Shown: positions 1,479 to 54,929 of the stretch, in pieces
Position numbering within the stretch: position 1 is the first letter of the stretch
How the letters are laid out: the number at the start of each line of letters is the position of its first letter
From: an uncultured Bacilli bacterium
GTDB lineage: Bacteria > Bacillota_I > Bacilli_A > RF39 > UBA660
DNA length: 64,000 bases
NCBI GenBank assembly: GCA_934130005.1
Contig: CAKOXD010000001.1
Span: 705 to 64,704 of the forward strand
Reading direction: 5' to 3'
The notes under the pieces: model-generated
The model's input: only the letters and a program-made list of their open reading frames with translations
What the model was told of the DNA's origin: nothing
The model's database searches: none
Program-made: the position numbers and the translations under genes

Positions 1479-2084
1479 ATGTATGAGTATGAAGAAGAAT
1501 TAATAAAAAAAGGAATTAAATATATAGCAGGAACAGATGAAGCTGGAAGAGGACCACTTATAGGTCCTGTAGTAGCAGCATGTGTTGTGTTACCACTAAA
1601 TTATAAAAATGAAGAAATAAATGATTCAAAGAAGCTAACAGAAAAAAAACGTGAAAAACTATACGACGTTATAATGAATGATGCCCTAGCAGTTGGAATA
1701 GGTATAGTAGATGCCGAAACAATTGACAAAATAAATATTTATGAAGCAAGTCGTCTTGCTATGATAAAAGCATATAAAGAAGCAAATAAAAAAATAAAAA
1801 TAGAACACTTACTTACTGATGCTATGCCTATAGATTTAGAAATACCTGTTACGAAAATAATAAAAGGAGATGCTAAAAGTATTACAATAGCCGCTTCATC
1901 AATAATCGCAAAAGTAACAAGAGATAGAATGCTAGTAGAATTAGATAAAAAATATCCAATGTATGGATTTAAAAATCATAAAGGATATCCGACAAAAAAA
2001 CATATAGAGGCAATGCATAAATATGGACTAATAGAAGGTTATAGAAAAAGTTATGGTCCAGTAAAAGAAATGATAGGTGATTAA
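1479..2084 (+). CDS. rnhB: Ribonuclease HII
   Basis: Contains GTDEAGRGPLIGPVV and the later KGDAKS and IIAKV motifs. I start it at ATG 1479 because the track's TTG 1428 lies inside the upstream terminator hairpin. Confidence 0.9.
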   Translation: MYEYEEELIKKGIKYIAGTDEAGRGPLIGPVVAACVVLPLNYKNEEINDSKKLTEKKREKLYDVIMNDALAVGIGIVDAETIDKINIYEASRLAMIKAYKEANKKIKIEHLLTDAMPIDLEIPVTKIIKGDAKSITIAASSIIAKVTRDRMLVELDKKYPMYGFKNHKGYPTKKHIEAMHKYGLIEGYRKSYGPVKEMIGD

Positions 2085-3532: not shown

Positions 3533-3694
3533 CAATTATATACTTATATCAATGAATGAAGGTGATATAAGAATAAGAAAAAAACAAAACTCAAAATAAC
3601 TAAAACTAAAAATAAACAATATTAATATACACTCCTTAAAATTCAATATGAATTTTAAATACTAAATACTAAAAAATGTGAAACCTATCAATGA

Positions 3695-3794: not shown

Positions 3795-5024
3795 ATGATA
3801 GGAATAAAACTTTCAAAGCATAAAAAAGAAACAATGGATAAAATAGAAGAATATTTAAATCCATCTGAAGTATATTTTAAAATTGATGATACTGACTCAT
3901 TATTAGTTAATCAAAATGATATTGTATTTAAAGGAGAAAAAATAATTAAAACCAAATACGATACCTATAAACATAGTAGTATAAGTGGAATAGTAAAAGA
4001 CATAGTAACAATGACTGATTATCAAAATAATGAATCAAAATTTATTAAAATAATAAATGATTTCAAAGAAGCAAATAAATTTAAAGAACAAGACTTAAAT
4101 AATATAACAAAAGAAGAATTTATAAATAACCTAAAAGAAAATGGAATAGTAGGACTTGGAGGAGCAGGATTTCCTACATATATTAAATACGATGTTGATA
4201 ATTTTAAAACACTTATAGTAAATGCTGTTGAATGTGAACCATATATAACATCAGACTATATCACATGCTTTAATAACATAGATAAAATAGTAGAAATACT
4301 AAATTTAATAGATAAAGTGTATAATTTGAAAGAAATATTTATAGCTATTAAAATAAAAAACAGAACATTAAAAGAAAAAATAATACCATATATAGCAAAA
4401 AATAAAAAAATAAAATTGATTGAAGTACCAAATTTATATCCAATGGGATGGGAAAAATCATTAGTAAGATATATAAAACACACTGATTATAATAAACTTC
4501 CTATCGAAAAAGAAATTATAGTAAGTAATGCATCTACAATTTATTCTATATATGAATCATTAAAATATAATAAACCATTAATAGAAAAAATAGTAACAGT
4601 TAGTGGTGATAATATAGAAAATAGTACTAATATAAAACTAAAAATCGGAACAAAATTTAGTGAACTAAAAAAAATATTTAAAAATTATAAAAATGAAGAA
4701 ATGACTTTAATAACAGGTGGACCAATGATGGGAACTAGTGTAAAAACTGATGAATTTATTATACCTAATAATTTAAATTCAGTAATAGCATTCAAAAATA
4801 TAAAAGAATTTAAATCTATAACATGTTTAAGATGTGGTAAATGTAGTGATCATTGTCCAGCTAAAATATGTCCAGTTTTAGTAAAAGATAATATAGAAAA
4901 TAAAGAAGAATTAAAAAGACTAAATGTTAATAGATGTATAGAATGCGGAATATGTTCATTTGTATGTCCATCAAGAATTAATTTAAGAGAATATGTAAAA
5001 GAAGCAAAGAAAAAGGTGAAATAA
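3795..5024 (+). CDS. rnfC: Rnf complex subunit C
   Basis: Contains GLGGAGFPT and two ferredoxin-type clusters: CLRCGKCSDHCP and CIECGICSFVCP. Confidence 0.9.
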   Translation: MIGIKLSKHKKETMDKIEEYLNPSEVYFKIDDTDSLLVNQNDIVFKGEKIIKTKYDTYKHSSISGIVKDIVTMTDYQNNESKFIKIINDFKEANKFKEQDLNNITKEEFINNLKENGIVGLGGAGFPTYIKYDVDNFKTLIVNAVECEPYITSDYITCFNNIDKIVEILNLIDKVYNLKEIFIAIKIKNRTLKEKIIPYIAKNKKIKLIEVPNLYPMGWEKSLVRYIKHTDYNKLPIEKEIIVSNASTIYSIYESLKYNKPLIEKIVTVSGDNIENSTNIKLKIGTKFSELKKIFKNYKNEEMTLITGGPMMGTSVKTDEFIIPNNLNSVIAFKNIKEFKSITCLRCGKCSDHCPAKICPVLVKDNIENKEELKRLNVNRCIECGICSFVCPSRINLREYVKEAKKKVK

Positions 5025-6442
5025 TGAAATTTAATGTAATAAAAGGACCATTTTTTAAAAGTAAAAACAACACAAATAAAATTATGATTAATTTACTTAT
5101 AGCACTTATACCAATCATATTATTTTCTTTTTATAAAAATGGTATAGTTTTATATCAAAATAATAAAACAGATATATTTGGAATGTTTTATCCTTTGATT
5201 TTTATATTAACAGGAGTAGTGTCAAGCTTTATAATCGAGACTATATATGCATATTTATTTTTACATTTAAAAAAAGATAAACTAAAAAAATATATAAAAA
5301 CTTCATTTAGTATATTTCCAGGATTATTTGTAAGTTTAGTATTACCGATAAATACACCGATAGAAATGGTTGTATTAGCGTCTATAATAGCTACAGTAAT
5401 AGGAAAAATGATTTATGGAGGATTTGGACATAATATATTTAATCCAGCCTTAATAGGATGCTTATTTGTTTTAACTGCATATTCAAGTGTTATATCTTTA
5501 AATGGAGGATATATAAATAAATATGAACTAGATACAATAGGAAGTGCAACTCCACTTACGAATAGTAAAATAGTAGAAAACATAAGTTATGATTCACTTG
5601 TAAAACCATATGGAAGTTTATCAGATTTCTTCTTTGGATTTATACCAGGATCGACAGGAGAAACATGCTCATTTTTAATTATTATTGCTTTAATATACTT
5701 AATAATAAAAAAAGTAATAAAATGGAAAATACCAATAATATATATAGGAACAGTTTTTATAATGACTTTAATAATTGGAAAAATAAATAATTTAGGTATA
5801 TGGTATCCAATATTTAGTATCTTAAGTGGTGGATTATTATTTGGAGCAACCTTTATGGCAACTGATCCAGTGACAAGTCCTGTAACAAGCTTAGGTCAAG
5901 TTATATATGCATTAATGCTTGGAATACTTACAGTAACATTCAGATATTTAACAAGTGCTCCAGAAGGAGTTTTAACATCAATATTAACCATGAATATGTT
6001 TGTACCATTACTAGATAGATTAGGTTCTAGTAGTAAATTTGCGTATAAAAAATCATTACTTCCTTTAGTAATAATATTTATTTTAACATTAGGACTTAGT
6101 ATAAATGTAGGAAACAAATTAAAGAAAAATAATGATGAAGATACAAATTTTAAAATAATAGAAAAAACAAATAGTTACTACATTGTAACAGAAAAAGGAA
6201 ATGGTGGACCTATAAAAGCCAAAATAACAATAAATGATAGTAAAATAACTAATATAGAAATACTTGAAAATAATGAAACAGAATCATATTACAAATTAAT
6301 TGAAGAACAAAATTATATTAATAAATTAATAAATAATCAAGAAAACATCAAGAATATAGACACTGTATCAGGAGCAACTATTTCATCAACTGCATTAAAA
6401 AGAATGGTTATAAATGTAATAAACGATAGGTGGGGAAAATAA
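5024..6442 (+). CDS. rnfD: Rnf subunit D fused to an RnfG-type FMN-binding domain
   Basis: The RnfD core has GSATPLT and MATDPVTSP. An extra TM helix follows, then an FMN_bind-like C-terminus ending in DTVSGATISS. At 472 aa it is clearly longer than the RnfD length I recall (about 310-350 aa). Confidence 0.85.
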   Translation: MKFNVIKGPFFKSKNNTNKIMINLLIALIPIILFSFYKNGIVLYQNNKTDIFGMFYPLIFILTGVVSSFIIETIYAYLFLHLKKDKLKKYIKTSFSIFPGLFVSLVLPINTPIEMVVLASIIATVIGKMIYGGFGHNIFNPALIGCLFVLTAYSSVISLNGGYINKYELDTIGSATPLTNSKIVENISYDSLVKPYGSLSDFFFGFIPGSTGETCSFLIIIALIYLIIKKVIKWKIPIIYIGTVFIMTLIIGKINNLGIWYPIFSILSGGLLFGATFMATDPVTSPVTSLGQVIYALMLGILTVTFRYLTSAPEGVLTSILTMNMFVPLLDRLGSSSKFAYKKSLLPLVIIFILTLGLSINVGNKLKKNNDEDTNFKIIEKTNSYYIVTEKGNGGPIKAKITINDSKITNIEILENNETESYYKLIEEQNYINKLINNQENIKNIDTVSGATISSTALKRMVINVINDRWGK

Positions 6443-9551: not shown

Positions 9552-10764
9552 AGTAGAATTATTATCTCCAGCAGGAGATTTAGAAAGATTAAAAATTGCA
9601 ATATTATATGGAGCAGATGCAGTATATATAGGAGGTCCTATGTTAGGACTTAGAGCAAATGCTAAAAACTTTACCTTTGAAGAAATAAAAGAAGGAGTTA
9701 TATTTGCTCATAACCATAATGCAAGAGTTCATGTTACAGTCAATATAGTACTTCATAATAAAGAAATAAAAGAAGTAATAGATTATTTAAGAAAATTAGA
9801 AGAATGTAATGTAGATGCAATTATCGTAAGTGATCCAGCTATAATAGAATTAGCAAAAAAATATACAAATTTAGAAATTCACCTTTCAACTCAACAATCG
9901 ACTTTAAATATAGAAGCATGTAAATTTTTTAAAAAAGAAGGTGTAAAAAGAATAGTATTAGGTCGTGAAGCAACAAGAAGTGACATAAAAGGTATAATAG
10001 ATAATGTAAATATAGATATCGAATGCTTTATTCATGGAGCAATGTGTGCTTCATTAAGTGGAAGATGTGTTTTATCAAATATATTTACAGGTCGCGATGC
10101 TAATCGTGGTGGCTGTGCTCAAATATGTAGATGGGATTTTAATCTTTTAGATGAAAATAATAATGAAATAAAAGGAGATAAACCATTTACATTTTGCTCA
10201 AAAGATCTAACAATGTTAAAATACATACCAGATATGATAGATATGGGAATAAAATCATTTAAAATTGAAGGAAGAATGCGTTCATCTTATTATATAGCAA
10301 CCGTAGTAAATATATATCGTAAAGTAATAGATAGTTATTTAAATGATAAAGAAAATTATAAATATAATATAGAATATGAAAATATTCTTAGAAACTGCGC
10401 AAATAGGGATGCAGTACCACAATTTTTTAATGGAATAAAAGATGTAACATGTAGTTATTATAATGGAAGAGAAGAAATTTCAAATCAAGATTTTATAGGA
10501 ATAGTTTTAGATTATGATAAAGAAACTAAATTAGCAACTATTGAACAAAGAAATTACTTCAAAAAAGGAGATAAAATAGAAATATTTGGTCCAAATATTA
10601 ATATAATAGATGTAACAATAGATGAAATAATAGATGAAGAAAACAATATAATAGATGTTGTAAGACATCCAAAACAAATAGTTAAAATAAAAATAGATGA
10701 AGAAGTATATAAATATGATATGCTAAGAAAAAAATTAAAACTTGACAAAAACTTAAATTCGTAG
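9541..10764 (+). CDS. Peptidase U32 family protein (YrrO/PrtC-like)
   Basis: Begins ELLSPAGDLERLKIAILYGADAVYIGG and contains HLSTQQS and the FKIEGRMRS motif. Confidence 0.85.
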   Translation: MKNKVELLSPAGDLERLKIAILYGADAVYIGGPMLGLRANAKNFTFEEIKEGVIFAHNHNARVHVTVNIVLHNKEIKEVIDYLRKLEECNVDAIIVSDPAIIELAKKYTNLEIHLSTQQSTLNIEACKFFKKEGVKRIVLGREATRSDIKGIIDNVNIDIECFIHGAMCASLSGRCVLSNIFTGRDANRGGCAQICRWDFNLLDENNNEIKGDKPFTFCSKDLTMLKYIPDMIDMGIKSFKIEGRMRSSYYIATVVNIYRKVIDSYLNDKENYKYNIEYENILRNCANRDAVPQFFNGIKDVTCSYYNGREEISNQDFIGIVLDYDKETKLATIEQRNYFKKGDKIEIFGPNINIIDVTIDEIIDEENNIIDVVRHPKQIVKIKIDEEVYKYDMLRKKLKLDKNLNS

Positions 10765-11278: not shown

Positions 11279-11347
11279 TATTTAGCTTTTTTTCTTGTAA
11301 TAAATTAAAAAATATTATATACTATAGAAGTATTGAAGGAGGATTTT

Positions 11348-12604
11348 ATGGCAAATAAGAATGTACGTGAAATAACAATTAAAGTAGAAGGAAAAAAATG
11401 GACAGATGCAATAGAAAAAGCATTCCAAAAAGCAAATAAAGAAGCAAAAATAGATGGGTTTAGAAAAGGACATGCTCCAAAAGAATTATTTATAAAAAAA
11501 TATGGAGAAACTAATTTATGGTTAGATGCAGCTGATTTAGTATTAGAAGATGCATATAAAGAAATGATAGAAGAAAATAAAGACTTAGAAATAGTCGCAC
11601 AACCAGAAATGAATTTAAAATCAATTTCATCTGAATATGTAGAATTTAATTTTAAATTAACATTAAGACCAGAAGTTAAACTTGGAAAATATAAAAAATT
11701 AGGTATTAAAAAAGAAGATACTAAAGTAACAAAAGAAGAAGTAGAAAAAGCACTTGAAGATACAAGAAAAAAATATGCTGAAAATGTTACAAAAGATGGA
11801 AAAGTAGAAAAAGATGATACAGCTATTATCGATTTTGAAGGATTCAAAGATGGTGTAGCATTCGAAGGTGGAAAAGGAGAAAACTATTCACTTGTAATAG
11901 GATCTAATACATTTATTCCTGGTTTTGAAGATCAATTAATAGGAATGAAAAAAGGAGAAGAAAAAGATATTAAATTATCTTTTCCAGAAGATTATCATGT
12001 AGAAGAATTAAAAGGACAACCAGTAGTATTTAAAGTAAAAGTAAACGAAATTAAAACTACAGTTCTACCAGAATTAGATAAAGATTTCTTCCAAGATTTA
12101 GGTATGGAAGGAATAGATTCAAAAGAAGCATTAGAAAACCAATTAGAAGAAAATATAAAAGCACATAAAGAACATCATGCAGAAGATCATTTTATAGATG
12201 AATTATTAAATGCAGCTATAAAAAATATGACAGTTGAAATACCAGATGCTATGATTAATGAAGAAATTGATCGTATGTTAAGACAATATGAAGAAAACTT
12301 AAAAATGCAAGGTATTACATTAGAACAATTCTATCAATTTACAAATTCTGATGAATCATTATTAAAAGACCAAATGAAAGAAGAAGCAGAAAAAAGAGTT
12401 TCTTCAAGATTATTACTGGAAGAAATTAAAAAAGCAGAAAATATTGAAATTACTGAAGAAGAAGCTAAAAAAGAAGCAGAAGATTTAGCAAGTAAATATC
12501 AAATGGAAACAGAAGAATTTATTAAATTATTTGGTGGACTTGAAATGGTAAAATATGATCTTGCAATGCGTAAAGCAATTGAAGTATTAAAAGATAATAA
12601 TTAA
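11348..12604 (+). CDS. tig: Trigger factor
   Basis: Contains GFRKGHAPK and an FKBP-type FIPGFEDQLIGMKKGE segment. GAAGGAGG precedes ATG 11348. Confidence 0.93.
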   Translation: MANKNVREITIKVEGKKWTDAIEKAFQKANKEAKIDGFRKGHAPKELFIKKYGETNLWLDAADLVLEDAYKEMIEENKDLEIVAQPEMNLKSISSEYVEFNFKLTLRPEVKLGKYKKLGIKKEDTKVTKEEVEKALEDTRKKYAENVTKDGKVEKDDTAIIDFEGFKDGVAFEGGKGENYSLVIGSNTFIPGFEDQLIGMKKGEEKDIKLSFPEDYHVEELKGQPVVFKVKVNEIKTTVLPELDKDFFQDLGMEGIDSKEALENQLEENIKAHKEHHAEDHFIDELLNAAIKNMTVEIPDAMINEEIDRMLRQYEENLKMQGITLEQFYQFTNSDESLLKDQMKEEAEKRVSSRLLLEEIKKAENIEITEEEAKKEAEDLASKYQMETEEFIKLFGGLEMVKYDLAMRKAIEVLKDNN

Positions 12605-12609
12605 TTAAA

Positions 12610-12633
12610 ATAGCTTGAAAAAAGCTATTTTTT
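12610..12633 (+). terminator. Rho-independent terminator after tig
   Basis: Stem ATAGCTT/AAGCTAT with a GAAAA loop and a T run. Confidence 0.7.
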
Positions 12634-12676
12634 GTTGTATCATTAGTATAGATAAAATAGAAAGTAGGTAAGAAGT

Positions 12677-13914
12677 ATGTTAGCAAATAGGAAATTCGGG
12701 GGGGTTATTTAGATAACCTAAAGAAAGGATTTACACTTATAGAGTTACTTGCAGTTATAGTGATATTAGCAATCATTGCATTAATCGCAACTCCAGTAAT
12801 ATATAGAATAATAAGTAGTTCAAGAATAAGTGCATTTAAAAATAAAATATATGCAATAGATGAAGCCGCAAATACTTATTATGAAAATATAATACTAGAT
12901 GGAGATGAAGATTTATTTACAAAAGGTGCAGATGGAATGTATTCATTAACATTAGATTTAAGTAAAGAAAGTGATTTTGAAAAATTAAATATAAAAAAAT
13001 CAGTAGAAAAAGGATTAGTAGTTATAACAGATGAAGGAAATGTATCAATAACAGCTCTTGATAATAAATTATGTGGATCAAAATATTCAAGCAGTGAAGT
13101 TATAAATATGTTAAGTATAAAAGATGATTTTTCATGTTACTTGTTAGATTCATCAAGTGAAAATATAGGAACAAATGATATATTAAAAGCAATTCAAAAT
13201 CTAAGTAATGAAGTAGAAGAATTAAAAAAATCAAACGAAGAATTAAAAACTTCAAATAATGACTTAAAAATTACTCTAAGTAATATGAATAACAATAGTA
13301 TAGGAACAAAAAATGCTTTGAATAAAATATATCCAGTAGGAAGTATATATATATCAACAACTTTAAATACAACAGATAAAGTAAAAGAAGCTTTAGGTGG
13401 AACATGGGTAGCATATGGAAGTGGTAGAGTACTTAGAGGAACGACTGGTGAAGCGAATGTAACAGGTGGAACAACTGGAAATATCTCATTAACAGCTGAT
13501 AATCTTCCAAGTCATAGACACTCATATACACCAGCAGGAAGTGTTACAAGTACATTTACAGGAACTGCAGTAAATACAGGAAATCAATCGGCTGATCATG
13601 CACATTATTTCAGTGCTACAACAAGTTCAACGGGTATACAATATGCTATAGGAAATCTACAATATTTAGCAAATGGTAATACATACCCAGATTTTAGATA
13701 TACTGGTTCTGGGACAGCTGGAGGTCATACACATACAGTAAGTGGATGGACAGGAGGAGTAAACTCAAATCATACACATCAAGTAACAGCAAAAGGTACA
13801 GTATCAAGTTCATTTACAGGATCAGCTAGCAATACAGGATATGTAGGAAATAATACTTCATTTAGTGTATTAGATCCATATATAACAGTTTATATGTATA
13901 AAAGAACTGAATAG
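12677..13914 (+). CDS. Type IV prepilin fused to a coiled coil and a phage tail-collar/baseplate-fibre-like tip domain. As sequenced, it is frameshifted relative to its ATG.
   Basis: The in-frame sequence KKGFTLIELLAVIVILAIIALIATP lies upstream of the track start (GTG 12760). It has a Cys-Cys pilin loop and the coiled coil NEVEELKKSNEELKTSNNDLK. The tip domain has YPVGSIYIS..GGTW, four HxH motifs (SHRHS, DHAHY, GHTHT, NHTHQ) and ends PYITVYMYKRTE. Confidence 0.75.
12698..12704 (+). repeat. G7 homopolymer tract between the ATG and the prepilin motif
   Basis: It is the longest G or C run I saw in this AT-rich window. It sits 21 nt after ATG 12677. Confidence 0.9.
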
Positions 13915-13934
13915 GCAGATTAATCTGCTTTTTT
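13915..13934 (+). terminator. Rho-independent terminator
   Basis: Stem GCAGATT/AATCTGC followed by T6. Confidence 0.65.
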
Positions 13935-13976
13935 ATTTGAATTATTTATGATATAATTAATTCATTAGGTGATAAT

Positions 13977-15281
13977 ATGGAACAAAAAGTAAGTATAAAT
14001 AGTTTTTTATTGATAGGAATTTCATTAATTTTAATAGGAATATTTACACTAATAGGTAGTGTTAGTTTATTTAAAGACGTTGCTAATGTCATGTTTCTTA
14101 TAATGCTTATAATAAGTATTAAAAATTTAATAAGTTTTTTAGTAAAAAAACAAGAAGATAAATTCAAACTTTTAACAAAAATAACTATTGTAATATTATC
14201 ACTAATAGCATGTATATTCAAAGATTATTCCGTAGCAATCGTACCTATAATATTTGCTATTTATTTATTAATAAATAGTGTAGCTAACTTATTTAACTTT
14301 ATACTTTTAAAACTAAATAAATTAAGAGGTGGATATAGCAACTTATTAATTGGATTAATTTATTTAATATCAGGAATAATGATACTATTTGGGCCACTTA
14401 TTCATTTAAATATAGTTCTTAAAATATTAGGAGTATATTCATTATTACTTGGAATAAGTTCTGTATTTGATTATATAGATTTTAATAATTACATTAAAAT
14501 ACCAAGAATAAAAGTAAATATGCCATTTATTATAGAAGCATTTATACCTATATCGGTATTACAAAAAATAAATAAACAGTATAATATAGAAAATGATGTA
14601 TATGAAAAGATAAATAAAAAAGATAATATAGAACCAGATATAGAAATATTAATCCATGTAACAGAGGATGGATATGGAAAACTAGGACACATGGATATTT
14701 GTTATAAAGATGAAATAATATCATACGGAAATTATGATTATAATAATAATAAATTAAATGGTGTATTTGGAACTGGTGTAGTATTTATTGCTAAACAAAA
14801 ACTAAAATATATAAGATTTTGCATTGAAGATACTAAAAAAACTATATTTGTTTTTGGATTAAAATTAAAAGAAGAAGAAAAACTAGAAATAGAAAAAAGA
14901 ATAAAAAAACTAAAAGAAGAATTAAAAAAATGGGATCCACCATATAAAGAAGCAAGAAAAAAACATAAAAAAGTATCGAATATAAAAGATTATTCAAGTA
15001 GACTATATAAATATATGAAACCAGAATTTTATAAATTTAAATCTGGAAAAAATAAAGTATTCTTTATATTAAAAAACAACTGTGTATCACTTGCTAATAA
15101 AATAATTGGGCCAACACTAAATAAACATCAAAAAATGTATGGTATATTAACACCAGGTACATATTATGATTATTTAGAAAGAGAATATATGAAAAAAAAC
15201 AGTATAGTAATAACAAAAAAAATATATAATAAATATAATATAGATAATTATGACTTGAAAAATAAAAAAAATATGTTATAA
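13977..15281 (+). CDS. Membrane protein: N-terminal multi-TM (HdeD-like) region plus a C-terminal soluble domain with a His...Cys signature
   Basis: About six TM helices are followed by GKLGHMDICY and later FFILKNNCVSLANK. Confidence 0.55.
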   Translation: MEQKVSINSFLLIGISLILIGIFTLIGSVSLFKDVANVMFLIMLIISIKNLISFLVKKQEDKFKLLTKITIVILSLIACIFKDYSVAIVPIIFAIYLLINSVANLFNFILLKLNKLRGGYSNLLIGLIYLISGIMILFGPLIHLNIVLKILGVYSLLLGISSVFDYIDFNNYIKIPRIKVNMPFIIEAFIPISVLQKINKQYNIENDVYEKINKKDNIEPDIEILIHVTEDGYGKLGHMDICYKDEIISYGNYDYNNNKLNGVFGTGVVFIAKQKLKYIRFCIEDTKKTIFVFGLKLKEEEKLEIEKRIKKLKEELKKWDPPYKEARKKHKKVSNIKDYSSRLYKYMKPEFYKFKSGKNKVFFILKNNCVSLANKIIGPTLNKHQKMYGILTPGTYYDYLEREYMKKNSIVITKKIYNKYNIDNYDLKNKKNML

Positions 15282-31736: not shown

Positions 31737-33725
31737 ATGGTGTTTTACATGAAAAATGAAAATAAAAATAAATCTAATTTTTCAATTGTAAAATTATTTT
31801 TCTATCCAATTAAAGGTCTTTACTTTATATTATATTTAATATATTCATTCTTTAAATACTCATTTAAAGGACTAGAATGCTTATTAAGTATTAACTTTTC
31901 AATTATAAAGAAAGCTTTATATGGAATACTATTTATATGTGTTTGTATATTTGATATATTTAAATTAATAGGTAAAACTATATTAAAACCTTTTAAGAAA
32001 AAGAAAGTAAAAAATAAAAAAACGGTTAAAATAGAAAAAGATACAAAACAAGAAAGTAAAAAAGAAAAAGTAAAAAAAATAAAAAAGAAAAAAGAAGAAA
32101 ATAAAGATGTAATTAATAAAAAAGAATTAAAAAAACAACAAATAGAAGAATTAGCTAAAAATTTTATAGAGCAAAAAGAAAAAGAAAAACAAGAAAAAGA
32201 AAGATTACTTGAAATTAAAAATAAGAAAAAACAAGAAGAGCAAAAAGAAAAGAAAGAAAGATTACGTAAGAAAAAAATAAATGAAGAAGCATATGTTAAT
32301 GAAAATGTTAAAATAGAAAAACCAACTATAAGTATGCAAATAAAAAATCTATTCAAAAAAATAGGTATGGTATTTGTATCAATTGGTTCTAAAATAACAA
32401 ATAACTCTTTTTCTAAAAATAGAAGAAATAAAAAAGATATGAAGCGTCAAGCATTACTTATAGATTTTGAAGGTGAAGACGCTAAAAAATCCGAAAAAAA
32501 ATTATTATATGAATATGTAGCAAAAGATAAAAATGGAAAAATAATAAAAGATTACTTTAATGCTTATTCTAAAGTAGAAGTTCATTCTTATTTACTTAGC
32601 GAAGGTTATGAAGTATATAGTATAAAAACTAATAAATTTATTCAATTTTTCCATAAAAATAGTAATACAAATAAAACAAGATTTAAAAACAAAGATCTTA
32701 TATTCTTTTTAACACAATTGTCAACTTATATTAAAGCAGGTATTCCATTAGTTGAATCACTTAGAATAATATCAAGACAATATAAGAAAAAAGCATATCA
32801 AAAAATATTTAGATCAGTAATTTATGAATTAACTATAGGAGAAAACTTTAGTTCAGCTATGGAAAAACAAAACGTTGCTTTTCCTAAATTACTTATAAAC
32901 ATGGTTAAAACAGCTGAAATGACAGGTTCGCTTCCAGAAGTATTAGATGATATGGCAAATTATTATACAGAAGCCGAAGAAACCAGAAAACAAATGGTAA
33001 CAGCTATGACATATCCTACAATTGTATTTTTATTTGCTATTGCTGTTATGATTTTCATAATGGTATATGTAGTACCACAATTTGTTGAAATATTTGAAAC
33101 AATGGATACAAAATTACCTGGTATTACACTTATGATATTAAATTTAAGTTCATTCTTAACACATTATTATATTTTCATAATAATAGCTGTCGTAGCATTC
33201 GTTACATTATTTATCGTTAGCTATAAAAAAATAAGAGGATTTAGAACAATGTGTCAATGGATAATGATGCATATACCAATTATAAATAACACTATCATTT
33301 ATAATGAAGTTACAATGTTTACAAAAACATTCTCATCATTATTAGCTCATAATGTTCCAATAACTGATTGTATGGAAATATTAAATAAAATAACAAATAA
33401 TGAAATTTATAAAATGCTTATTTTAGATACTATTACTAACTTAGCAAGAGGTGGTAAAATATCTGATGCATTTAAAGATCATTGGGCTTTTCCAGTTCCA
33501 GCTTATGAAATGATTGTAACTGGAGAAATGACTGGTGAATTAGCAGAAATGATGGGTAAAGTATCATCATATTATCAAAATTTACATAAAAACTCAGTTA
33601 CAAGAATTAAAACATTTATTGAACCAGCACTTACTATTTTCTTAACATTTGGAGTTGGTGTAATCTTATTATCAATTATTGTACCAATGTTTAGTATGTA
33701 TTCTGCAGTTCAAGAAATGGGATAG
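31737..33725 (+). CDS. pilC: Type IV pilus / T2SS platform protein (GspF/PilC family) with an N-terminal extension of about 250 aa
   Basis: The two GspF repeats start near LYEYVAKDKNGK. The N-terminal extension has two TM helices and a long K/E-rich tract. Confidence 0.85.
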   Translation: MVFYMKNENKNKSNFSIVKLFFYPIKGLYFILYLIYSFFKYSFKGLECLLSINFSIIKKALYGILFICVCIFDIFKLIGKTILKPFKKKKVKNKKTVKIEKDTKQESKKEKVKKIKKKKEENKDVINKKELKKQQIEELAKNFIEQKEKEKQEKERLLEIKNKKKQEEQKEKKERLRKKKINEEAYVNENVKIEKPTISMQIKNLFKKIGMVFVSIGSKITNNSFSKNRRNKKDMKRQALLIDFEGEDAKKSEKKLLYEYVAKDKNGKIIKDYFNAYSKVEVHSYLLSEGYEVYSIKTNKFIQFFHKNSNTNKTRFKNKDLIFFLTQLSTYIKAGIPLVESLRIISRQYKKKAYQKIFRSVIYELTIGENFSSAMEKQNVAFPKLLINMVKTAEMTGSLPEVLDDMANYYTEAEETRKQMVTAMTYPTIVFLFAIAVMIFIMVYVVPQFVEIFETMDTKLPGITLMILNLSSFLTHYYIFIIIAVVAFVTLFIVSYKKIRGFRTMCQWIMMHIPIINNTIIYNEVTMFTKTFSSLLAHNVPITDCMEILNKITNNEIYKMLILDTITNLARGGKISDAFKDHWAFPVPAYEMIVTGEMTGELAEMMGKVSSYYQNLHKNSVTRIKTFIEPALTIFLTFGVGVILLSIIVPMFSMYSAVQEMG

Positions 33726-33734
33726 GAGAGAAGT

Positions 33735-34502
33735 ATGGAAATATATTATGCAATTGTTTTCTTCATTTTTGGCACAATTTTAGGTTCATTTTATAATGTA
33801 GTTGGTTATAGACTTCCAAGAGGAGAATCAATTGCCTTTCCAGCTAGCCACTGTACCAAATGTGGACATAAACTTACACCATTTGAACTAATTCCAATAA
33901 TATCTTTTTTACTACAAAAAGGTAGATGTACTAAATGTGGCGATAAAATATCATGGTTTTATACAATATTTGAATTTGCAACAGGAATTCTTTTTGCTAT
34001 TTCATATTTAGTATTTGGAATATCAATAGATTTATTAATAGTACTAACATTTATATCTATGCTTTTAATAGTAATAATAAGCGATTATCAAACTATGATT
34101 ATTCCTGATGAATTATTAATTACTACAGTTATATTATTGATGATAGAAATATTTTTAAAAAGTGGTATAACCGGATTATTAACATCACTACTAAACGGAT
34201 TAATAATGTTTACTATTATGTTTTTAATAAAAAAAATAGGTGATTTTATATTTAAAAAAGAATCAATGGGTGGTGGAGACATAAAACTTATGTTTATATA
34301 TGGTATGGTCTTAGGGTGGCCTACATCATGTATATCTATTTGCTTCGCATCATTTATAGGATTACCTGTATCATTAATATTAATAAAAAAATTAAAAAAT
34401 CACGAAATACCATTTGGACCATTTTTAGCAATTTCAGCAATTATAATGGTACTATTTAAAATAGATTTCAATTGGGTTTTAAATTTACTAAGTGAAATAT
34501 AA
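33735..34502 (+). CDS. pilD: Prepilin peptidase (A24 family)
   Basis: Contains the zinc-finger pairs CTKCGH and CTKCGD and the catalytic-Asp contexts IISDYQ and GGGDIKLM. Confidence 0.9.
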   Translation: MEIYYAIVFFIFGTILGSFYNVVGYRLPRGESIAFPASHCTKCGHKLTPFELIPIISFLLQKGRCTKCGDKISWFYTIFEFATGILFAISYLVFGISIDLLIVLTFISMLLIVIISDYQTMIIPDELLITTVILLMIEIFLKSGITGLLTSLLNGLIMFTIMFLIKKIGDFIFKKESMGGGDIKLMFIYGMVLGWPTSCISICFASFIGLPVSLILIKKLKNHEIPFGPFLAISAIIMVLFKIDFNWVLNLLSEI

Positions 34503-34538: not shown

Positions 34539-34988
34539 ATGAAGAAAAATTTCAAAATTATAATGACCATTATAATAACTGCTATTATTTGTACAAGTGG
34601 AACAGTATATGCTGTATCATACATGGCTAAAGATATTAAGTATAAAGATAAAACTGTAGAAGATGCTCTAAATGAATTATATAGTAATTCAAATAATTCT
34701 ATCAGTAATGAAGATTTAGCAAAAATACTAAATGAAAAAGAGTTTAAGGGAATAAGTTCTGCTAATTCAACAATGACTGTAACTAAAGGAAAATATTATA
34801 TTATTTCATATGCTAGAATAAATAGTAATAGTGAAACAACAATTACATCAGGTGCTGAAGTATTAAAGCAAAGCGATTCATTTACTGGCGGTAGTAATTC
34901 TTTACGTATATATTTAGTAAAAGCTACTGATTCAAAAATTACATTTTCAGTAAAAACTGGGAATATTGTAACATATATCGAATTATAA
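34539..34988 (+). CDS. Secreted protein with a conserved N-terminal KDIKYKDKTVEDALNELYS module and a variable beta-rich C-terminus
   Basis: It has a Sec-type signal peptide ending TVYA. Its first ~50 residues are paralogous to those of 35508..35948. Confidence 0.6.
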   Translation: MKKNFKIIMTIIITAIICTSGTVYAVSYMAKDIKYKDKTVEDALNELYSNSNNSISNEDLAKILNEKEFKGISSANSTMTVTKGKYYIISYARINSNSETTITSGAEVLKQSDSFTGGSNSLRIYLVKATDSKITFSVKTGNIVTYIEL

Positions 34989-35007: not shown

Positions 35008-35499
35008 ATGAAAAAAAGAGGTTTTACATTAATAGAACTATTAGCAGTTATAGTGATATTAGCAATTATCGCATTAATCGCAACACCAATAATATTAAAC
35101 ATGATAAATAATGCAAGAAAAAGTGCAGCAGTAGATAGTGCATACGGATATATAGAAGCAGTTGAATATAATAATTCAATGAATATGATAAACAAAGATA
35201 AATATCCATTAATAGAAGATGGAGAAGATATTGATATAAGTACAATAACAAATATAAATATTAAAGGAACAAAACCTGATAGTGGTAAAATATCAATAAG
35301 TAAAAAAAGAGTAGTTAGTGCATCATTATGTATAAGTGGATATACTGTAGAATATGACTCTAAAAAAGCAGAAGCCATAGGTAAATGTAATGAAACAAGT
35401 GATAAAATTGATTCCTCAAACGTATCATTTACTCCAAGTGATTCTAGTTGGAATGTAAATACAGTCGAAGAAGCACTTAATTATTTATATGAGAATTAG
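35008..35499 (+). CDS. Type IV pilin (class III signal peptide), probably the major pilin
   Basis: Begins MKKRGFTLIELLAVIVILAIIALIATP. It has a C-terminal Cys pair and ends NVNTVEEALNYLYEN. Confidence 0.88.
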   Translation: MKKRGFTLIELLAVIVILAIIALIATPIILNMINNARKSAAVDSAYGYIEAVEYNNSMNMINKDKYPLIEDGEDIDISTITNINIKGTKPDSGKISISKKRVVSASLCISGYTVEYDSKKAEAIGKCNETSDKIDSSNVSFTPSDSSWNVNTVEEALNYLYEN

Positions 35500-35507
35500 G
35501 TGATATA

Positions 35508-35948
35508 ATGAAAAAAATAAACAAAAACTTCATATTTGGAATATTAATTGGATTATTATTAAGTACAGTCACTGTATATGCTGCAAATACTTACTTAGCA
35601 AGTAATATAAAATATAAAAACACAAACGTAGAAGATGCTTTAAATGAATTATACAGTAGTAATTGTATAAATGGATCTTTTGAGCATATATCAAATACAC
35701 AAATTAATTATAAATTTAAATTTGTACCAAGCAAATTAATAGCAACATTTAATTTATCTGGTGGTAAAGTTATAATATTTTATTCTAAAGAATATGATGG
35801 TACACTTCGTAGTATTTCTACATATAATCCAAGCATAATATCTGAATCTGGAATATTTATAGAAAATGATACTATTAAAAGTGAAATTTCAAATACATAT
35901 ATCACTTATAAAGAACAATATAATGTTAATTATACAATTTGCAAATAA
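35508..35948 (+). CDS. Secreted protein with a conserved N-terminal SNIKYKNTNVEDALNELYS module and a variable C-terminus
   Basis: It has a signal peptide ending TVYA. Its N-terminal module matches that of 34539..34988. Confidence 0.6.
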   Translation: MKKINKNFIFGILIGLLLSTVTVYAANTYLASNIKYKNTNVEDALNELYSSNCINGSFEHISNTQINYKFKFVPSKLIATFNLSGGKVIIFYSKEYDGTLRSISTYNPSIISESGIFIENDTIKSEISNTYITYKEQYNVNYTICK

Positions 35949-38158: not shown

Positions 38159-40687
38159 ATGGAAGAATTGTTTAATTTGAAACTAGTAGATTATATAAAA
38201 AAAATACAATCAATGAATGAAGAAGAACTAAAAAAATTGATTTTATCTGAAAAATTTTTAAATACTTCAAATCAAATAATCAATAGTACGTTTAATTTTC
38301 TAAATAAAGATTTAAAAAATATATTTATATTGGATAATAACTTACTATTAAAACTTTTGAAATCAATACAAACTCAAAAAATAAAATTTAATGTAATTGA
38401 TATTGAAACACAATATGAAGTTATAAAAAACATAGAACCATTTTTAAGACTAAACGATGTAGAACTTTATAATTTAATAAAATCTATGAATAAAGATGTA
38501 TATGAAAAATTTATAAATAACTTAAATAATTATATATATGATAATGATGTAACATCCAAAAATTCATTAATAGTTAATATAAATAATTTGTATAATGATT
38601 ATAAAAATGGTGAAAAAGATAGTTATTATATAAATAGTTTAAAACAAAAAATAATGAATGAATATAACATAAAAAATAATGAATTAATAAATCAAATAAC
38701 ATATAATTTTTTACTTAAAAATAGAAATATATTTGAATTATATAGAATCAAGTCAGAAATAGTACTATATATATATAACAAATTTAATATTGTTGTAAGT
38801 GAAAATTTATTTAATGATGAAAATCAAAATAAATATAATATATCATTAGAATTACTTGAGATGTTAAATAATAAGCACGTTATAAAAATAATAGAAAAAT
38901 TAAAGTTAATTGGAGAAGATAATGATAAAATATTTGTAACAGCAATTAAACTTTATTGTTTATTTGGTATAGATAATGCATTAAAAATATTAAATAATAA
39001 CTTTACATATTCTACAAGTAGAAGTTTAGAAAAAGCTGCTAATTTTAACTTTTTATATGAAAGACGTAATTATAGAATAAACCATCAAGATGAATTCTAT
39101 AGCTATGAAACCGTTGAAAAACTAAAAAAAGCTTTACAGAATAATGAAAAAGGATTTATAAAAAAAATAAGTAGAAATGGTGATACTGTATATGTAAATT
39201 CATTATTTTTACAACTTAAAGAAGATTATACATTATATAAAAATGATGATAAAATGCTTAACTATTTAAATGAAACAATAAAAAATGAAATAAATGAAAG
39301 AGAAAAAAATGTAAAATCATTTTATACAGCAAATTATTATCAAAATAATAGTTCAAATAGGAAACCATTAACACTTGATGAATTATTCAATATATTTTCA
39401 GATTATGATTGTTTTTTAACAATTTTCGACCAAAATAAAAATGTCATAATGAATCCAAAAATTAAAGATTTATTATTAGACAATGAAAAAAAAGATAATG
39501 ATTGTTTACTTAGAATGTTTTTTAATAAACAAGTATTAGATTATAATATTGAACTTATTAATATAATCAATGAATTTGATAAGATAGATAATATATTAAA
39601 CTTATGTGGTAATAATAGAAAAACATTTAGTGAAAAAGAGCTTTTAAATATATTAGATGTACATAAAATATTGAAATTTAATCTTGAAGTAGATGAAAAA
39701 GAAATACCACTAAGTGCATTATCGAAAACTCTTATATCAAAAACACATCTAACAACAAATGAAAACGAAGCATTAAAAGAATTTAAAAAAATATTTAAAG
39801 AGAGTAGAAAAAAAGTTTCATCTACAATTCCTAAAGTAAAAGGAATAACAAAAAATAATTTTAGATATAAAGTATTAGATAAAAATGATTTAGAATTATT
39901 AACTTGCGGAATTGATGTTGGTAGTTGTTTTAAACCAGGAGCCCCAGGAGAAGACTTTTATAAATATGCTTTAACAAGTAAATATTCCGATGTAATAGGA
40001 ATATGGGATGAAGATAATAACTTTTATATGTGTCCTATAATAAGAAATGGAAATGTTGTATATGGAAATGGAATAGATCCTGATAAAATTGATAAAGAAA
40101 CATTGCCAAAAGTAATAGAAGCACTAAAAAAATGTTATTCAGAAATTATAAAAAAAAGTAATAACTCAGAAAAAATAGATTTTTGTACAGTAACAGATTT
40201 GCATGATTATATAAAAGAAGAAGATGTATATGAAAAAATAGAAATTACCAAAGTACCTATGATAGATGAAAATTTCTATTGTGATTTAACTAAAAATGAT
40301 ATGGTAAGTTATATAATAGCAGGTAATAAAACAAATATAAAAGAATATAAACCTCAAATAGAATATTTAATACCAAGGCAAAAAAATTATGTTTATTCTA
40401 AAGAACAAATAGAAGATAAATTGATTATAGAAGAAAGAATTAATGAAATTGAATACAATAATTCTAAGATAAATAAAGAAGAATATAAAAACATAAATAT
40501 AGATGACTATATTTATGTTGTATGTAATGAAGACTGGTATATAGCACTTAGAAGTGATTTTTCATTAAAAACAGCATGTTTGTCATATGATAAAAGAGCA
40601 AAAGATGAATATCTAAGAGAATTTACTAAAATAAGATTCAACTACGAATTATACGATGCATTAGATAATAAAAAAAATAGGAGATGA
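38159..40687 (+). CDS. Large hypothetical protein (842 aa), no recognised domain
   Basis: Uninterrupted ORF with AAGGAGG upstream. The N-terminal two-thirds is helical and N/K-rich. A Cys-containing block lies at aa 565-640. Confidence 0.6.
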   Translation: MEELFNLKLVDYIKKIQSMNEEELKKLILSEKFLNTSNQIINSTFNFLNKDLKNIFILDNNLLLKLLKSIQTQKIKFNVIDIETQYEVIKNIEPFLRLNDVELYNLIKSMNKDVYEKFINNLNNYIYDNDVTSKNSLIVNINNLYNDYKNGEKDSYYINSLKQKIMNEYNIKNNELINQITYNFLLKNRNIFELYRIKSEIVLYIYNKFNIVVSENLFNDENQNKYNISLELLEMLNNKHVIKIIEKLKLIGEDNDKIFVTAIKLYCLFGIDNALKILNNNFTYSTSRSLEKAANFNFLYERRNYRINHQDEFYSYETVEKLKKALQNNEKGFIKKISRNGDTVYVNSLFLQLKEDYTLYKNDDKMLNYLNETIKNEINEREKNVKSFYTANYYQNNSSNRKPLTLDELFNIFSDYDCFLTIFDQNKNVIMNPKIKDLLLDNEKKDNDCLLRMFFNKQVLDYNIELINIINEFDKIDNILNLCGNNRKTFSEKELLNILDVHKILKFNLEVDEKEIPLSALSKTLISKTHLTTNENEALKEFKKIFKESRKKVSSTIPKVKGITKNNFRYKVLDKNDLELLTCGIDVGSCFKPGAPGEDFYKYALTSKYSDVIGIWDEDNNFYMCPIIRNGNVVYGNGIDPDKIDKETLPKVIEALKKCYSEIIKKSNNSEKIDFCTVTDLHDYIKEEDVYEKIEITKVPMIDENFYCDLTKNDMVSYIIAGNKTNIKEYKPQIEYLIPRQKNYVYSKEQIEDKLIIEERINEIEYNNSKINKEEYKNINIDDYIYVVCNEDWYIALRSDFSLKTACLSYDKRAKDEYLREFTKIRFNYELYDALDNKKNRR

Positions 40688-54008: not shown

Positions 54009-54929
54009 ATGAAAAAATTAATTATGTATCTATTAGTTATAATAATGTTTTTAATTTTAAAAAATTCTAGTATTATAATAAATACAGTTATATATTCTGT
54101 TAACCTATTTAAAGCAAGCATTTTTCCATCTTTATTTCCATTCTTTATTATTTCTGAATTATTAATTAATTATGGATTTATTGATTATTTATCTAATATT
54201 TTTAAATCATTAATGCTAAAAATATTTAAAATTAATCCAAATTGTTCTTTTATCTTATTTATGAGTATGATTTCTGGCTTTCCAAGTAATTCAAAATATA
54301 CAAAAGATTTATATTTAAAAGGTGAAATAAATGAAATGGAAGCATCTAAAATACTTATGTATACTCATTTTTCAAATCCATTATTTATAATGGGAGCTAT
54401 TTCAATTACATTCTTGCATGATAAAAAAGCTGGATTTATAATTTTATTAATTCATTATTTATCTAACTTTATAATTGGTATACTAAGTAGAAATTTTATA
54501 AAAACACCTATTAGTGATAAAATTGTAAAAAAAAATACAACTAATAATTTTTCCTATATATTAAGTAAAGCTATAATTAATAGTTTTAATACTCTTTTTT
54601 TAATATTAGGAACCATAATTATATTCCAGATTATAACTAACTTAACAAGTGAAATACTGCCTTTAAATGACTATTTTAAAGCTATAATTAGTGGTATTTT
54701 AGAAATGAGTAGTGGAATCTATAATATTAGTTTATTAAATATTCCACTAAAAAATAAATGTACTTTAATTGGTATGATTTTATCATTTGGAGGAATAAGT
54801 GTACATATGCAAATAAAAAGTATCCTATCAGATACTAAAATTAAATACTATCCTTTCTTTATAGCTCGTTTAATTCATAGTGCTATAACAGGACTACTTA
54901 TGTTTTATTTATTTGATTTTATTTATTAA
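54009..54929 (+). CDS. ylbJ: Sporulation integral membrane protein YlbJ (nucleoside-recognition Gate domains)
   Basis: Polytopic protein with the FPSLFPFFIISELL motif. It is adjacent to the ylbL homologue, as in Bacillus. Confidence 0.75.
   Translation: MKKLIMYLLVIIMFLILKNSSIIINTVIYSVNLFKASIFPSLFPFFIISELLINYGFIDYLSNIFKSLMLKIFKINPNCSFILFMSMISGFPSNSKYTKDLYLKGEINEMEASKILMYTHFSNPLFIMGAISITFLHDKKAGFIILLIHYLSNFIIGILSRNFIKTPISDKIVKKNTTNNFSYILSKAIINSFNTLFLILGTIIIFQIITNLTSEILPLNDYFKAIISGILEMSSGIYNISLLNIPLKNKCTLIGMILSFGGISVHMQIKSILSDTKIKYYPFFIARLIHSAITGLLMFYLFDFIY

Follow-up and report, generated by a model that had tools for sequence, protein, structure and literature searches.

Here we describe a gene in a stretch of 64,000 nucleotides (nt) from an uncultured Bacilli bacterium (contig CAKOXD010000001.1 of assembly GCA_934130005.1, positions 705 to 64,704; hereafter the window), in which the reading frame of a type IV pilin continues into a domain known from phage tail fibres and baseplates. 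We consider it probable that this chromosomal gene encodes a modular minor type IV pilin with a domesticated phage fibre or baseplate tip, and that its expression is phase-variable. The product would most likely act as a switchable and exchangeable adhesin.

Modular pilins, defined by an N-terminal pilin module followed by a domain that is not specific to type IV pilus biology (PMC8179133), explain how simple pili gain functions. The protein described here falls within this definition, as it combines the N_methyl and Gp10_C domains, and it borrows the device by which phages recognize cell surfaces. Since that device normally works only as a trimer, a structural question arises, namely that of three tip pilins folding one fibre. 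The host Bacilli are abundant in the gut and uncultured, and almost nothing of their surface biology is known. The combination of an ON/OFF switch with swappable tips in such bacteria makes the gene a candidate for strain-level variation in colonisation, aggregation and evasion of phages or immunoglobulin A.

Pilin module and phage-type fibre domain

The pilin frame encodes a class III signal, KKG/FTLIELLAVIVILAIIALIATP (the slash marks the cleavage site), with F+1 at position 12730 and E+5 at 12742. Domain searches were run on the protein after repair of the frame at the poly-G tract described below, and the residue numbers of the cysteines and of the His-x-His (HxH) motifs refer to this repaired precursor. 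The Pfam model N_methyl (PF07963) was matched with an E-value of 2.6e-8 and 33.5 bits (cut-off 21.2), and the NCBIfam model TIGR02532, for the prepilin cleavage/methylation domain, with 33.6 bits against a cut-off of 16.3. Residues G18, F19, T20, L21 and E23 are invariant across 32 family members, and the pair C133/C154 is kept in most of the family. A profile built from 44 family members and compared with the PDB matched PilE1 of Streptococcus sanguinis (8pfb, E 4e-8), through alpha1 only. AlphaFold 2 (AF2) models were made as monomers, beginning at KKG or at the C-terminal domain. In the predicted pilin module a helix of residues 6-60 is followed by strands as far as residue 131 (pLDDT about 86-95), so that the alpha-beta pilin fold, a long alpha1 on a beta-sheet with a Cys pair, is present in the predicted model. 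A preliminary description of this DNA, made from the letters alone, had named the class III signal with its pilin helix, a pilin-type Cys-Cys loop, and 23-nt and 14-nt stretches of near identity to the pilin gene at 35008. The signal was found again in frame, the two cysteines of the loop were located, and the two nucleotide matches proved to be exact.

Between the pilin module and the fibre domain lie a Ser-rich linker (SSSEN), an NIGTNDILKAIQNL motif and a heptad helix of about 40 residues. AF2 places a helix at residues 151-191 (pLDDT 84-92) where the coiled coil is predicted, and by our own reading of the sequence hydrophobic or Asn residues recur there at a spacing of 3-4. Matches of this stretch to ZapB, DivIC and bZIP were all weak.

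The C-terminal part of the protein matched the Pfam model Gp10_C (PF21939), which represents the C-terminal domain of the T4 baseplate protein gp10, with an E-value of 2.6e-13 and 51.5 bits (cut-off 27); model positions 2-139 of 139 correspond to residues 215-411. Two halves of a head or collar can be distinguished, YPVGSIY...LPSHRH, with GGTW after YPVGSIYIS, and ...PYITVYMYKRTE. In PHROGs the domain was assigned to phrog_6465, a 'tail protein' (3e-12). The 44-member profile, searched against PDB sequences, reached T4 gp10 (2fkk) with an E-value of 2.7e-11 in the fibre domain and the tip of the T4 long tail fibre, gp37 (2xgf), with 3.3e-6 in the HxH region. A profile of the C-terminal part only placed 2xgf at the top, HxH on HxH, with an E-value of 0.012 and a strong compositional bias, while phmmer with the C-terminal 136 residues alone returned only noise from the PDB, mainly ice-binding proteins. 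The match to the Pfam Phage_fiber repeat was below threshold. Within the family H280 and H282 are invariant, and H351, H353, H366 and H368 are at least 90% conserved. The tail-collar or baseplate-fibre domain recognized in the preliminary description is borne out by the kind of profile search that it proposed as a check, through the matches to Gp10_C, phrog_6465, gp10 and gp37; the four HxH motifs, the head motif, the linker motif, the heptad helix and the C-terminal ending that it listed can all be read in the pilin frame. We regard the joining of pilin and phage fibre tip in one protein as well supported by these sequence comparisons.

Relatives of the fibre domain are found in phages. A tblastn search of 50,697 phage genomes gave 175 records with tail or tail-fibre homologues; the matches listed span 94-100% of the domain with identities of 29-34%. 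They bear annotations as tail or tail-fibre proteins, and their sources include Blautia, Faecalimonas and Dorea phages, Felixounavirus and Streptococcus phages. At least 457 stretches in IMG/VR encode relatives, of which the full-length matches are about 27-36% identical. As cellular copies are 45-63% identical to the fibre domain of the window and viral ones at most about 36% over the full-length domain, the domain is, judged by these identities, a long-domesticated module and no prophage fragment.

The architecture is that of a conserved family and not a one-off, as a search for proteins with both N_methyl and Gp10_C, proposed earlier, made clear. Among the 120 clusters (90% identity) that matched best, 38 have both Pfam domains, with identities to the query of 31-95%. 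In the library of representatives at 50% identity, the profile match extends from the pilin N-terminus into the fibre domain in 48 of the 150 best-ranking entries, and 429 proteins were found at E <=1e-30. The members were found in assemblies of gut metagenomes (ENA, NCBI, Logan) and, where a taxon label is given, in metagenome-assembled genomes (MAGs) of 'Bacilli bacterium', 'Tenericutes', 'Mycoplasmatota' or 'Erysipelotrichaceae'; the sole functional name on the entries is 'type II secretion system protein'. Invariant in the family are G-1, F1, T2, L3, E5, the head motif YPxGSxY...GxW, LP-H-x-H and the terminal VYxxKR. The preliminary description had called a pilin displaying a phage tip an unusual device: the architecture is real, but less unusual than it was rated. 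Other proteins of the same clade (P0038, P0046, P0089), whose genes lie in chromosomal surroundings without phage character, carry the fibre domain behind a plain N-terminal membrane anchor. An exact DNA pattern over the leader and tract found no match in JGI metagenome contigs, so that the lineage was met only in ENA, NCBI and Logan assemblies, and a generic pilin-motif scan of GTDB representatives gave mostly ordinary pilins, with no close orthologue among the matches listed. Our literature searches brought up no account of pilins fused to Gp10_C, nor of pilins under poly-G control in Bacillota.

Three further genes were observed among the related loci. At L003 a gene for a modular pilin of 597 amino acids (aa) with N_methyl and LRR_5 (leucine-rich repeats) lies at 150-1943, directly upstream of the P0008 homologue, so these genomes carry several kinds of modular pilin. 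At L093 (2501-3205) the fibre domain stands alone, the pilin module being deleted, and the upstream gene encodes an ATP-binding cassette (ABC) transporter instead of tig. P0024, encoded on the same contig (51,204 nt) as P0010, has a degenerate signal, KSKFTLLVT, which lacks Gly-1 and Glu5.

Poly-G tract and allelic cassettes

Positions 12677-13914, given as one open reading frame (ORF) in the preliminary description, are covered by two frames. From ATG 12677, which is off the pilin frame, only MLANRKFGGVI is read before a TAG stop after 11 codons. The pilin and fibre frame is open from 12691 to the TAG at 13912-13914 and is preceded by a TAG at 12688-12690; it has no ATG, GTG or TTG before GTG 12760, which falls within the hydrophobic helix. 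The two frames are parted by a run of seven G and joined by one additional G, and G8 or G11 at this position restores MLANRKFGGGYLDNLKKG/FTLIELL. Because its start codon is out of frame, the gene as sequenced is unable to yield a prepilin; the intact ORF expected of a type IV pilin is found in relatives with G11 or an interrupted tract. ATG 12677 is the sole start codon able to give the prepilin leader, and the intact homologues P0008 and P0009 start there (MLANSKIG...). An in-frame ATT start at 12694 was considered and rejected, as the sole purine-rich stretch abuts the ATT without spacing. The out-of-frame start, and with it the mechanism of phase variation, had been overlooked in the preliminary description. 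Its joining of the pilin N-terminus to the fibre domain stands: it had named a separate reading frame for the pilin as the case in which the fusion would fall, and that is not what we found, since the KKG motif and the fibre domain share one frame.

The tract is the only G or C homopolymer of six or more in the 64-kb window (22.6% GC), for which 0.023 runs of G7 or longer are expected. Its length varies between related assemblies (Table 1), each length being the consensus, or majority, call of a metagenome assembly. The most direct comparison is between L086 and L002, the same scaffold in different samples (104876 and 104878 nt): over 3837 aligned nt there are 1 mismatch and one 2-nt gap, which lies in the tract and is the only length difference in the compared 3.8 kb. 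A 5' coding homopolymer of at least seven and a length polymorphism that switches the frame between near-identical assemblies are both features of contingency genes. The ON lengths equal 3n+2, tract lengths in all three frames are observed, and no further lesion was seen in the frame of about 1.2 kb 3' of the tract; this signature fits slipped-strand phase variation, with the gene caught OFF in the window. Programmed ribosomal or transcriptional slippage at G7 was also considered and is not needed, as length variants are observed at the DNA level. The 3' end of the tract is overlapped by a hairpin, and comparable palindromes follow the tract in L002, L003, L081, L025 and L030. No Rfam family was found for the 5' region of the gene.

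OFF alleles are easily misread. In P0002, P0018 and P0028 the gene callers picked an internal GTG or ATG, with the result that the pilin signal is lost and only Gp10_C is shown; L086, for example, was called from an internal Met and became P0028. Because gene callers truncate OFF alleles in this way, phase-variable fusion genes are systematically mis-annotated in MAG catalogues.

Variation is also found outside the tract. L084 and L085 have the same locus as the window (tig-pilin-DUF308-pheST) with flanks 98-99% identical, but a 5' cassette (window 12641-12719) is swapped for a short one with the leader MKKNG and without a G tract. A second, hypervariable cassette lies between the second and third HxH motifs, and protein alignments place almost all of the indel-rich divergence of the family in this stretch, which by analogy with gp37 would be the distal tip. 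The alignments show that tip-coding and 5' cassettes are exchanged between alleles at the same locus. In the sample series of L001 and L084 a paralogue linked to bacA was found, which has a 5' cassette identical to that of the window and a different tip; the species therefore probably has at least two independently switched copies. In L088 the gene of this paralogue is called at 607-1596 and the tract lies at 411-419 (product P0018).

Tracts of this kind recur in related genomes. In 93 cellular loci (829 kb), fetched by pilin or fibre similarity, 23 runs of at least G7 were counted against about 3 expected, all of them on the strand of the pilin-like gene, and C runs were absent; in 80 viral loci there were 5 G runs against 22 expected. 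Most tracts (range G7-G12) are found a short distance 5' of genes for pilins or for membrane-anchored Gp10_C proteins, an enrichment that suggests clade-wide poly-G control of surface-fibre genes. Three classes were distinguished. The tract either forms part of a promoter spacer, abutting the -10 box, or belongs to a conserved 5' element, or lies in a coding leader as in the window. The 5' element (L025, L030, L081, L006, L014) consists of a GTTTGC-n5-GCAAAC hairpin, a tract of G9-10 and a terminator-like hairpin (GGTATTT..AAATACC with a T-run), is situated 60-150 nt upstream of pilin starts and has no match in Rfam. The MLAN... leader of the window (ATGTTAGCAAATAG..Gn) looks like a derivative of this element.

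Expression unit, locus and pilus machinery

The coordinates of all features are given in Table 1. The candidate promoter is the best site in 12500-14050, with 10/12 matches, although such sites are not enriched over shuffled sequences; the homologous position in L002 and L003 reads TTGAAA-17-TATAAT. With this promoter, an AGGT ribosome-binding site and an intrinsic terminator framing it, the gene is shown, as far as sequence signals can do so, to be a monocistronic unit. The locus is a housekeeping one and syntenic, the gene being found between tig and pheST in several strains. No phage genes are present within the 64-kb window, as the preliminary description had stated for the vicinity of the gene; the neighbours are tig, a gene for a DUF308 membrane protein, pheS and pheT.

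The window also encodes machinery for pilus assembly: PilD, PilC, PilB, a putative major pilin and two divergent minor pilins. The PilC protein has an unusual Lys/Glu-rich N-terminal extension of about 300 aa, which is preceded by two hydrophobic segments. The putative major pilin gene is flanked by two ORFs on the forward strand (34539-34988 and 35508-35948) that are paralogues of each other (E 4e-11); both encode an N-terminal membrane anchor followed by (K)YK(D/N)..VEDALNELY and have no Pfam match. The same motif ends the major pilin (VEEALNYLY, 35440-35496), and related ones are DILKAIQNL, before the coiled coil of the pilin-fibre protein, and VQDAIDG, after the anchor of P0038-type fibre proteins; the similarity of the flanking ORFs to P0038 has an E-value of 0.064 only. 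An ORF of 842 aa (38159-40687), near the pilin cluster and downstream of a xerD-like recombinase gene, has no Pfam match.

Table 1. Features of the pilin-fibre gene and the pilus genes of the window, and poly-G tracts and associated elements of related loci. Positions are those of the window or of the locus named.
Locus	Feature	Position	Strand	Remarks
Window	tig	11333-12604
Window	Candidate sigma-70-like promoter	12615-12643	+	TTGAAA-17-TATCAT, 3' of the tig terminator hairpin
Window	Ribosome-binding site AGGT	12666-12669	+	Read from the sequence; 7 nt before the ATG
Window	Start codon ATG	12677-12679	+	Read from the sequence
Window	Poly-G tract, G7	12698-12704	+	In the leader-peptide coding sequence; G7 = OFF, G8/G11 = ON
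Window	Hairpin	12703-12718	+	GGTTAT-TTAG-ATAACC
Window	Premature TAG read from the ATG in the G7 state	12710-12712	+
Window	End of class III signal, cleavage site KKG/F, hydrophobic alpha1-N	12721-12795	+	PF07963, TIGR02532
Window	Globular pilin module	12796-13161	+	Remaining alpha1, beta-sheet, Cys pair
Window	Linker, motif and predicted coiled coil	13150-13293	+
Window	Gp10_C-type baseplate/tail-fibre domain	13309-13911	+	Head/collar halves enclose HxH beta-strands and tip
Window	Four HxH motifs as one feature	13513-13779	+
Window	SHRHS	13510-13524	+	HRH 280
Window	DHAHY	13594-13608	+	HAH 308
Window	GHTHT	13723-13737	+	HTH 351
Window	NHTHQ	13768-13782	+	HTH 366
Window	Hypervariable tip cassette	13634-13768	+	L084 segment does not align at all
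Window	Intrinsic terminator	13913-13940	+	Sole terminator-like site in the region; shuffle mean 0.2
Window	DUF308 membrane protein	13977-15281
Window	Platform protein PilC/T2SSF	31737-33725	+	Pfam T2SSF, E 8e-53
Window	Prepilin peptidase (PilD), expected processing enzyme	33735-34502	+	Pfam A24_N_bact, Peptidase_A24
Window	Putative major pilin	35008-35499	+	5' end near-identical to that of the pilin-fibre gene at nucleotide level
Window	Minor pilin, divergent	54919-55419	-	N_methyl match
Window	Minor pilin, divergent	55419-55943	-	RGFMLVETL motif
Window	Assembly ATPase PilB/T2SSE	56046-57536	+	Pfam T2SSE, E 1e-124
L001	Tract G7			OFF; other sample, different strain, 9 mismatches in 9155 nt
L002	Tract G11			ON; in frame, full-length P0009, leader MLANSKIGGGGYLNNLKKG
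L003	Tract GGGAGAGG			ON; interrupted, 8 nt, in frame, full-length P0008
L086	Tract G9			OFF; same scaffold as L002, different sample
L087, L088, L089	Tract G9			OFF; paralogous gene next to bacA, different tip, three samples
L041	Tract in promoter spacer	5955-5965		TTGACA-n8-G11-CATAAT (TTGACAaaagtcat-G11-CATAAT)
L010	Tract in promoter spacer	1960-1968		TTGACA-n10-G9-TATAAT (TTGACAatacccatcc-G9-TATAAT)
L069	Tract	3572-3583
L022	Tract	3837-3843
L017	Tract	5867-5875
L067	Tract	10488-10497
L025	5' element	5935-5995		MAG MGYG-HGUT-02248
L030	5' element	5940-5995		MAG MGYG-HGUT-02248
L081	5' element	5845-5900		MAG MGYG-HGUT-02248
L006	5' element	1848-1890
L014	5' element	1312-1355

Function, alternative explanations and known systems

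A mechanism can be proposed as follows. Slipped-strand mispairing during replication would toggle the gene between ON and OFF. In the ON state PilD would cleave the prepilin after Gly-1, and the cleaved pilin module would enter a pilus built by the PilB/PilC machinery. We propose that three copies become joined through the coiled coil, probably the three foremost ones at the tip, by analogy with CofB. Our reasons are that the phage counterparts of the fibre domain form obligate trimers and that the domain of the window has a coiled coil in front of it. The three C-terminal parts might then fold into a trimeric collar, an HxH metal needle and a variable tip, as in T4 gp10 and gp37, with the Ser-rich linker taking up the helical stagger of the pilins. 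The ligand of the tip may be a glycan or a protein exposed on the host mucus or on the surface of other cells. Paralogues with other tips, each switched independently, would provide a stochastic and exchangeable repertoire of adhesion.

Several observations weigh against the proposal of a phase-variable pilus tip. Six of the seven uninterrupted tracts are OFF in the consensus assemblies, and decay would look alike. With 18 residues the leader is longer than is typical of prepilins. The 5' portion of its coding sequence, ATGTTAGCAAATAG...Gn, is also found in other MAGs (L035, L052), at 145-150 nt before the ATG of the pilin, where ATGTTAGCAAATAG-G9 forms a short upstream ORF only; the leader of the window may therefore have arisen from a regulatory leader element or may still serve as one. 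Genes for PilT and PilMNO were not recognized within the window, so that the filament may be no more than a short fibre of the Com or pseudopilus type. A further difficulty is how a tip with three-fold symmetry would fit onto pilins that are staggered along a helix. Finally, AF2 predicts long beta-hairpins for the fibre domain with only moderate confidence in the monomer, and Foldseek searches of the PDB with the full-length and C-domain AF2 monomers gave nothing significant.

The structural comparisons are further affected by the fact that monomer models of intertwined trimers are unreliable. In the PDB search gp10 (2fl8) took rank 3 with an E-value of 0.14; beta-pore toxins, the top matches, were set aside as an artefact of long isolated hairpins. 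In BFVD all 13 matches with E <=1e-3 are baseplate or tail-fibre proteins, at TM-scores of 0.2-0.3, and the next match is T4 gp37 (E 3.9e-3, low TM-score). Structural support for the fusion of pilin and fibre domain is suggestive only.

Among the alternatives, the one that holds up best, though we consider it rather unlikely, is that the prepilin signal serves only for export and for anchoring in the membrane or in a short pseudopilus, the product being a cell-proximal fibre and not the tip of a long pilus. It would resemble pseudopilins of type II secretion systems or Com systems, or archaeal sugar-binding proteins with class III signals, and could serve, for example, in cell-cell recognition or in the capture of DNA or ligands. 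This agrees with the limited set of pilus genes in the window (PilB, PilC, PilD and pilins), although the absence of PilT and PilMNO concerns the window only. The occurrence of the fibre domain on plain membrane anchors in the same clade implies that surface display as such, rather than pilus display, may be what matters. However, the pilin module is complete, with alpha1, beta-sheet and Cys pair, and is conserved across the family, and its alpha1-N is near-identical at nucleotide level to that of the putative major pilin, which suggests co-assembly into the same filament.

Decay of the gene is a second alternative, in which the frameshift would be a plain disabling mutation in a dispensable accessory gene. 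The OFF states of the window and L001 (G7) and of L086-L089 (G9) can be read in this way, as can the truncated remnant without pilin module at a rearranged copy of the locus (L093) and the degenerate pilin signal of P0024. We nevertheless find a pseudogene quite improbable: the gene is 99.9% conserved between strains, its frame of 1.2 kb 3' of the tract has neither stop nor lesion, and all lesions observed fall within the one hypermutable tract. In-frame states exist, with G11 and with the interrupted tract, one scaffold carries G9 or G11 depending on the sample, and tracts of G7-G11 in a genome of 22.6% GC would not persist without selection.

It is very improbable that the tract length is an error of sequencing or assembly and that the gene is really an intact G8 allele, constitutively expressed. 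G homopolymers are error-prone and the lengths given are majority calls from metagenomes, but the same length was obtained in independent samples (G7 twice, and G9 three times in the bacA-linked paralogue), the lengths fall in all three frames, and a tract of this kind is a hallmark of contingency loci at any exact count. There is hardly any chance that the gene is a prophage remnant or a non-cellular gene for a phage receptor-binding protein, although the family of its C-terminal domain is dominated by phage baseplate and tail-fibre proteins, since the window has no phage genes, the position between tig and pheST is shared by several strains, the N-terminus is a prepilin and even the nearest viral relatives reach no more than about 29-36% identity across the whole domain.

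Beyond the single gene, we put forward a broader reading tentatively and with more doubt than confidence. Low-GC gut Bacilli may possess a poly-G 'phasome' of surface fibres, in which tracts in coding leaders, promoter spacers and the 5' element toggle the expression of trimeric receptor-binding tips, domesticated from phages and carried on pilins or on membrane anchors, with recombining tip cassettes. If this is true, the pilus would be a retargetable, phage-like device for recognition of cells or glycans, possibly aimed at other bacteria, and the coiled coil would nucleate a cluster of three pilins, a structurally new kind of pilus tip.

Among known systems, the survey of modular pilins covers over 1,200 proteins with 264 architectures, one of which has the S74 chaperone module of phage tailspikes (PMC8179133). 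The Gp10_C model was not found in its text or in the accessible supplements, nor were the terms phage, tail or fibre in the accessible supplement text (PMC8179133). Closest in design are PilB (pilin and vWA) and PilC (pilin and lectin) of S. sanguinis, in which, as here, a class III pilin module carries a grafted ligand-binding module through a short linker (PMC8179133, PMC9934059); the likeness extends to the monoderm host and to a minor pilin beside a separate major pilin. In contrast to these, the module of the window is a Gp10_C/gp37-like tip, whose phage fold is obligately trimeric, it is preceded by a coiled coil, and its gene is phase-variable with cassette-like replacement of the tip.

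CofB of enterotoxigenic Escherichia coli, a large minor pilin with extra C-terminal beta-domains, forms a homotrimer whose predicted place is the tip of the pilus (PMC8179133). It offers a precedent for the joining of three pilins by their C-terminal modules, but belongs to type IVb pili of diderms, its extra domains (beta-repeat, beta-sandwich) are unrelated, and it lacks the coiled coil, HxH motifs and poly-G switch of the pilin in the window. TcpB of Vibrio cholerae is grouped with CofB as a trimeric minor pilin of the tip.

The switch finds its counterpart in Neisseria pilC, where a poly-G tract in the region coding for the signal peptide turns the gene ON and OFF by frameshift (PMC13017665). 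Formally this is the same device, placed in the signal-peptide coding sequence of a gene for a pilus-associated adhesin (PilC1/PilC2), whereas PilC/PilY1 is no pilin, has a beta-propeller domain and belongs to a diderm beta-proteobacterium. With T4 gp10 (2fkk) the fibre domain shares YPxGxIY...GxW...LP and the C-terminal PYITVY strand, and its HxH stretch resembles, in sequence profile, the ascending and descending HxH strands that flank a distal tip in gp37 (2xgf). Those motifs of gp37 bind iron ions within its trimeric needle (PMC11705849). The domain of the window differs from both in being much shorter and in being carried by a pilin instead of a baseplate or fibre shaft, and its identity to phage proteins, counted over the whole domain, does not go beyond about 36%.

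Exchange of the tip recalls the PilV minor pilin adhesins of IncI-type conjugative thin pili, for example those of TP114 (PMC9045228). PilV is likewise a minor pilin with an exchangeable C-terminal part, which sets the target cells. In the R64 shufflon PilV is varied by site-specific DNA inversion through Rci. A homopolymer tract and allelic cassettes take the place of Rci inversion in the window, and the PilV systems are plasmid-borne and found in diderm hosts. It is thus established from known systems that modules are grafted onto pilins, that pilus adhesins are switched by poly-G tracts and that the C-termini of pilin adhesins are exchangeable. What appears to be new is the architecture, in which a pilin is followed by a coiled coil and by a Gp10_C/gp37-like tip that is probably trimeric, and likewise the homopolymer switch and tip cassettes on such a pilin and its diversified family in uncultured gut Bacilli.

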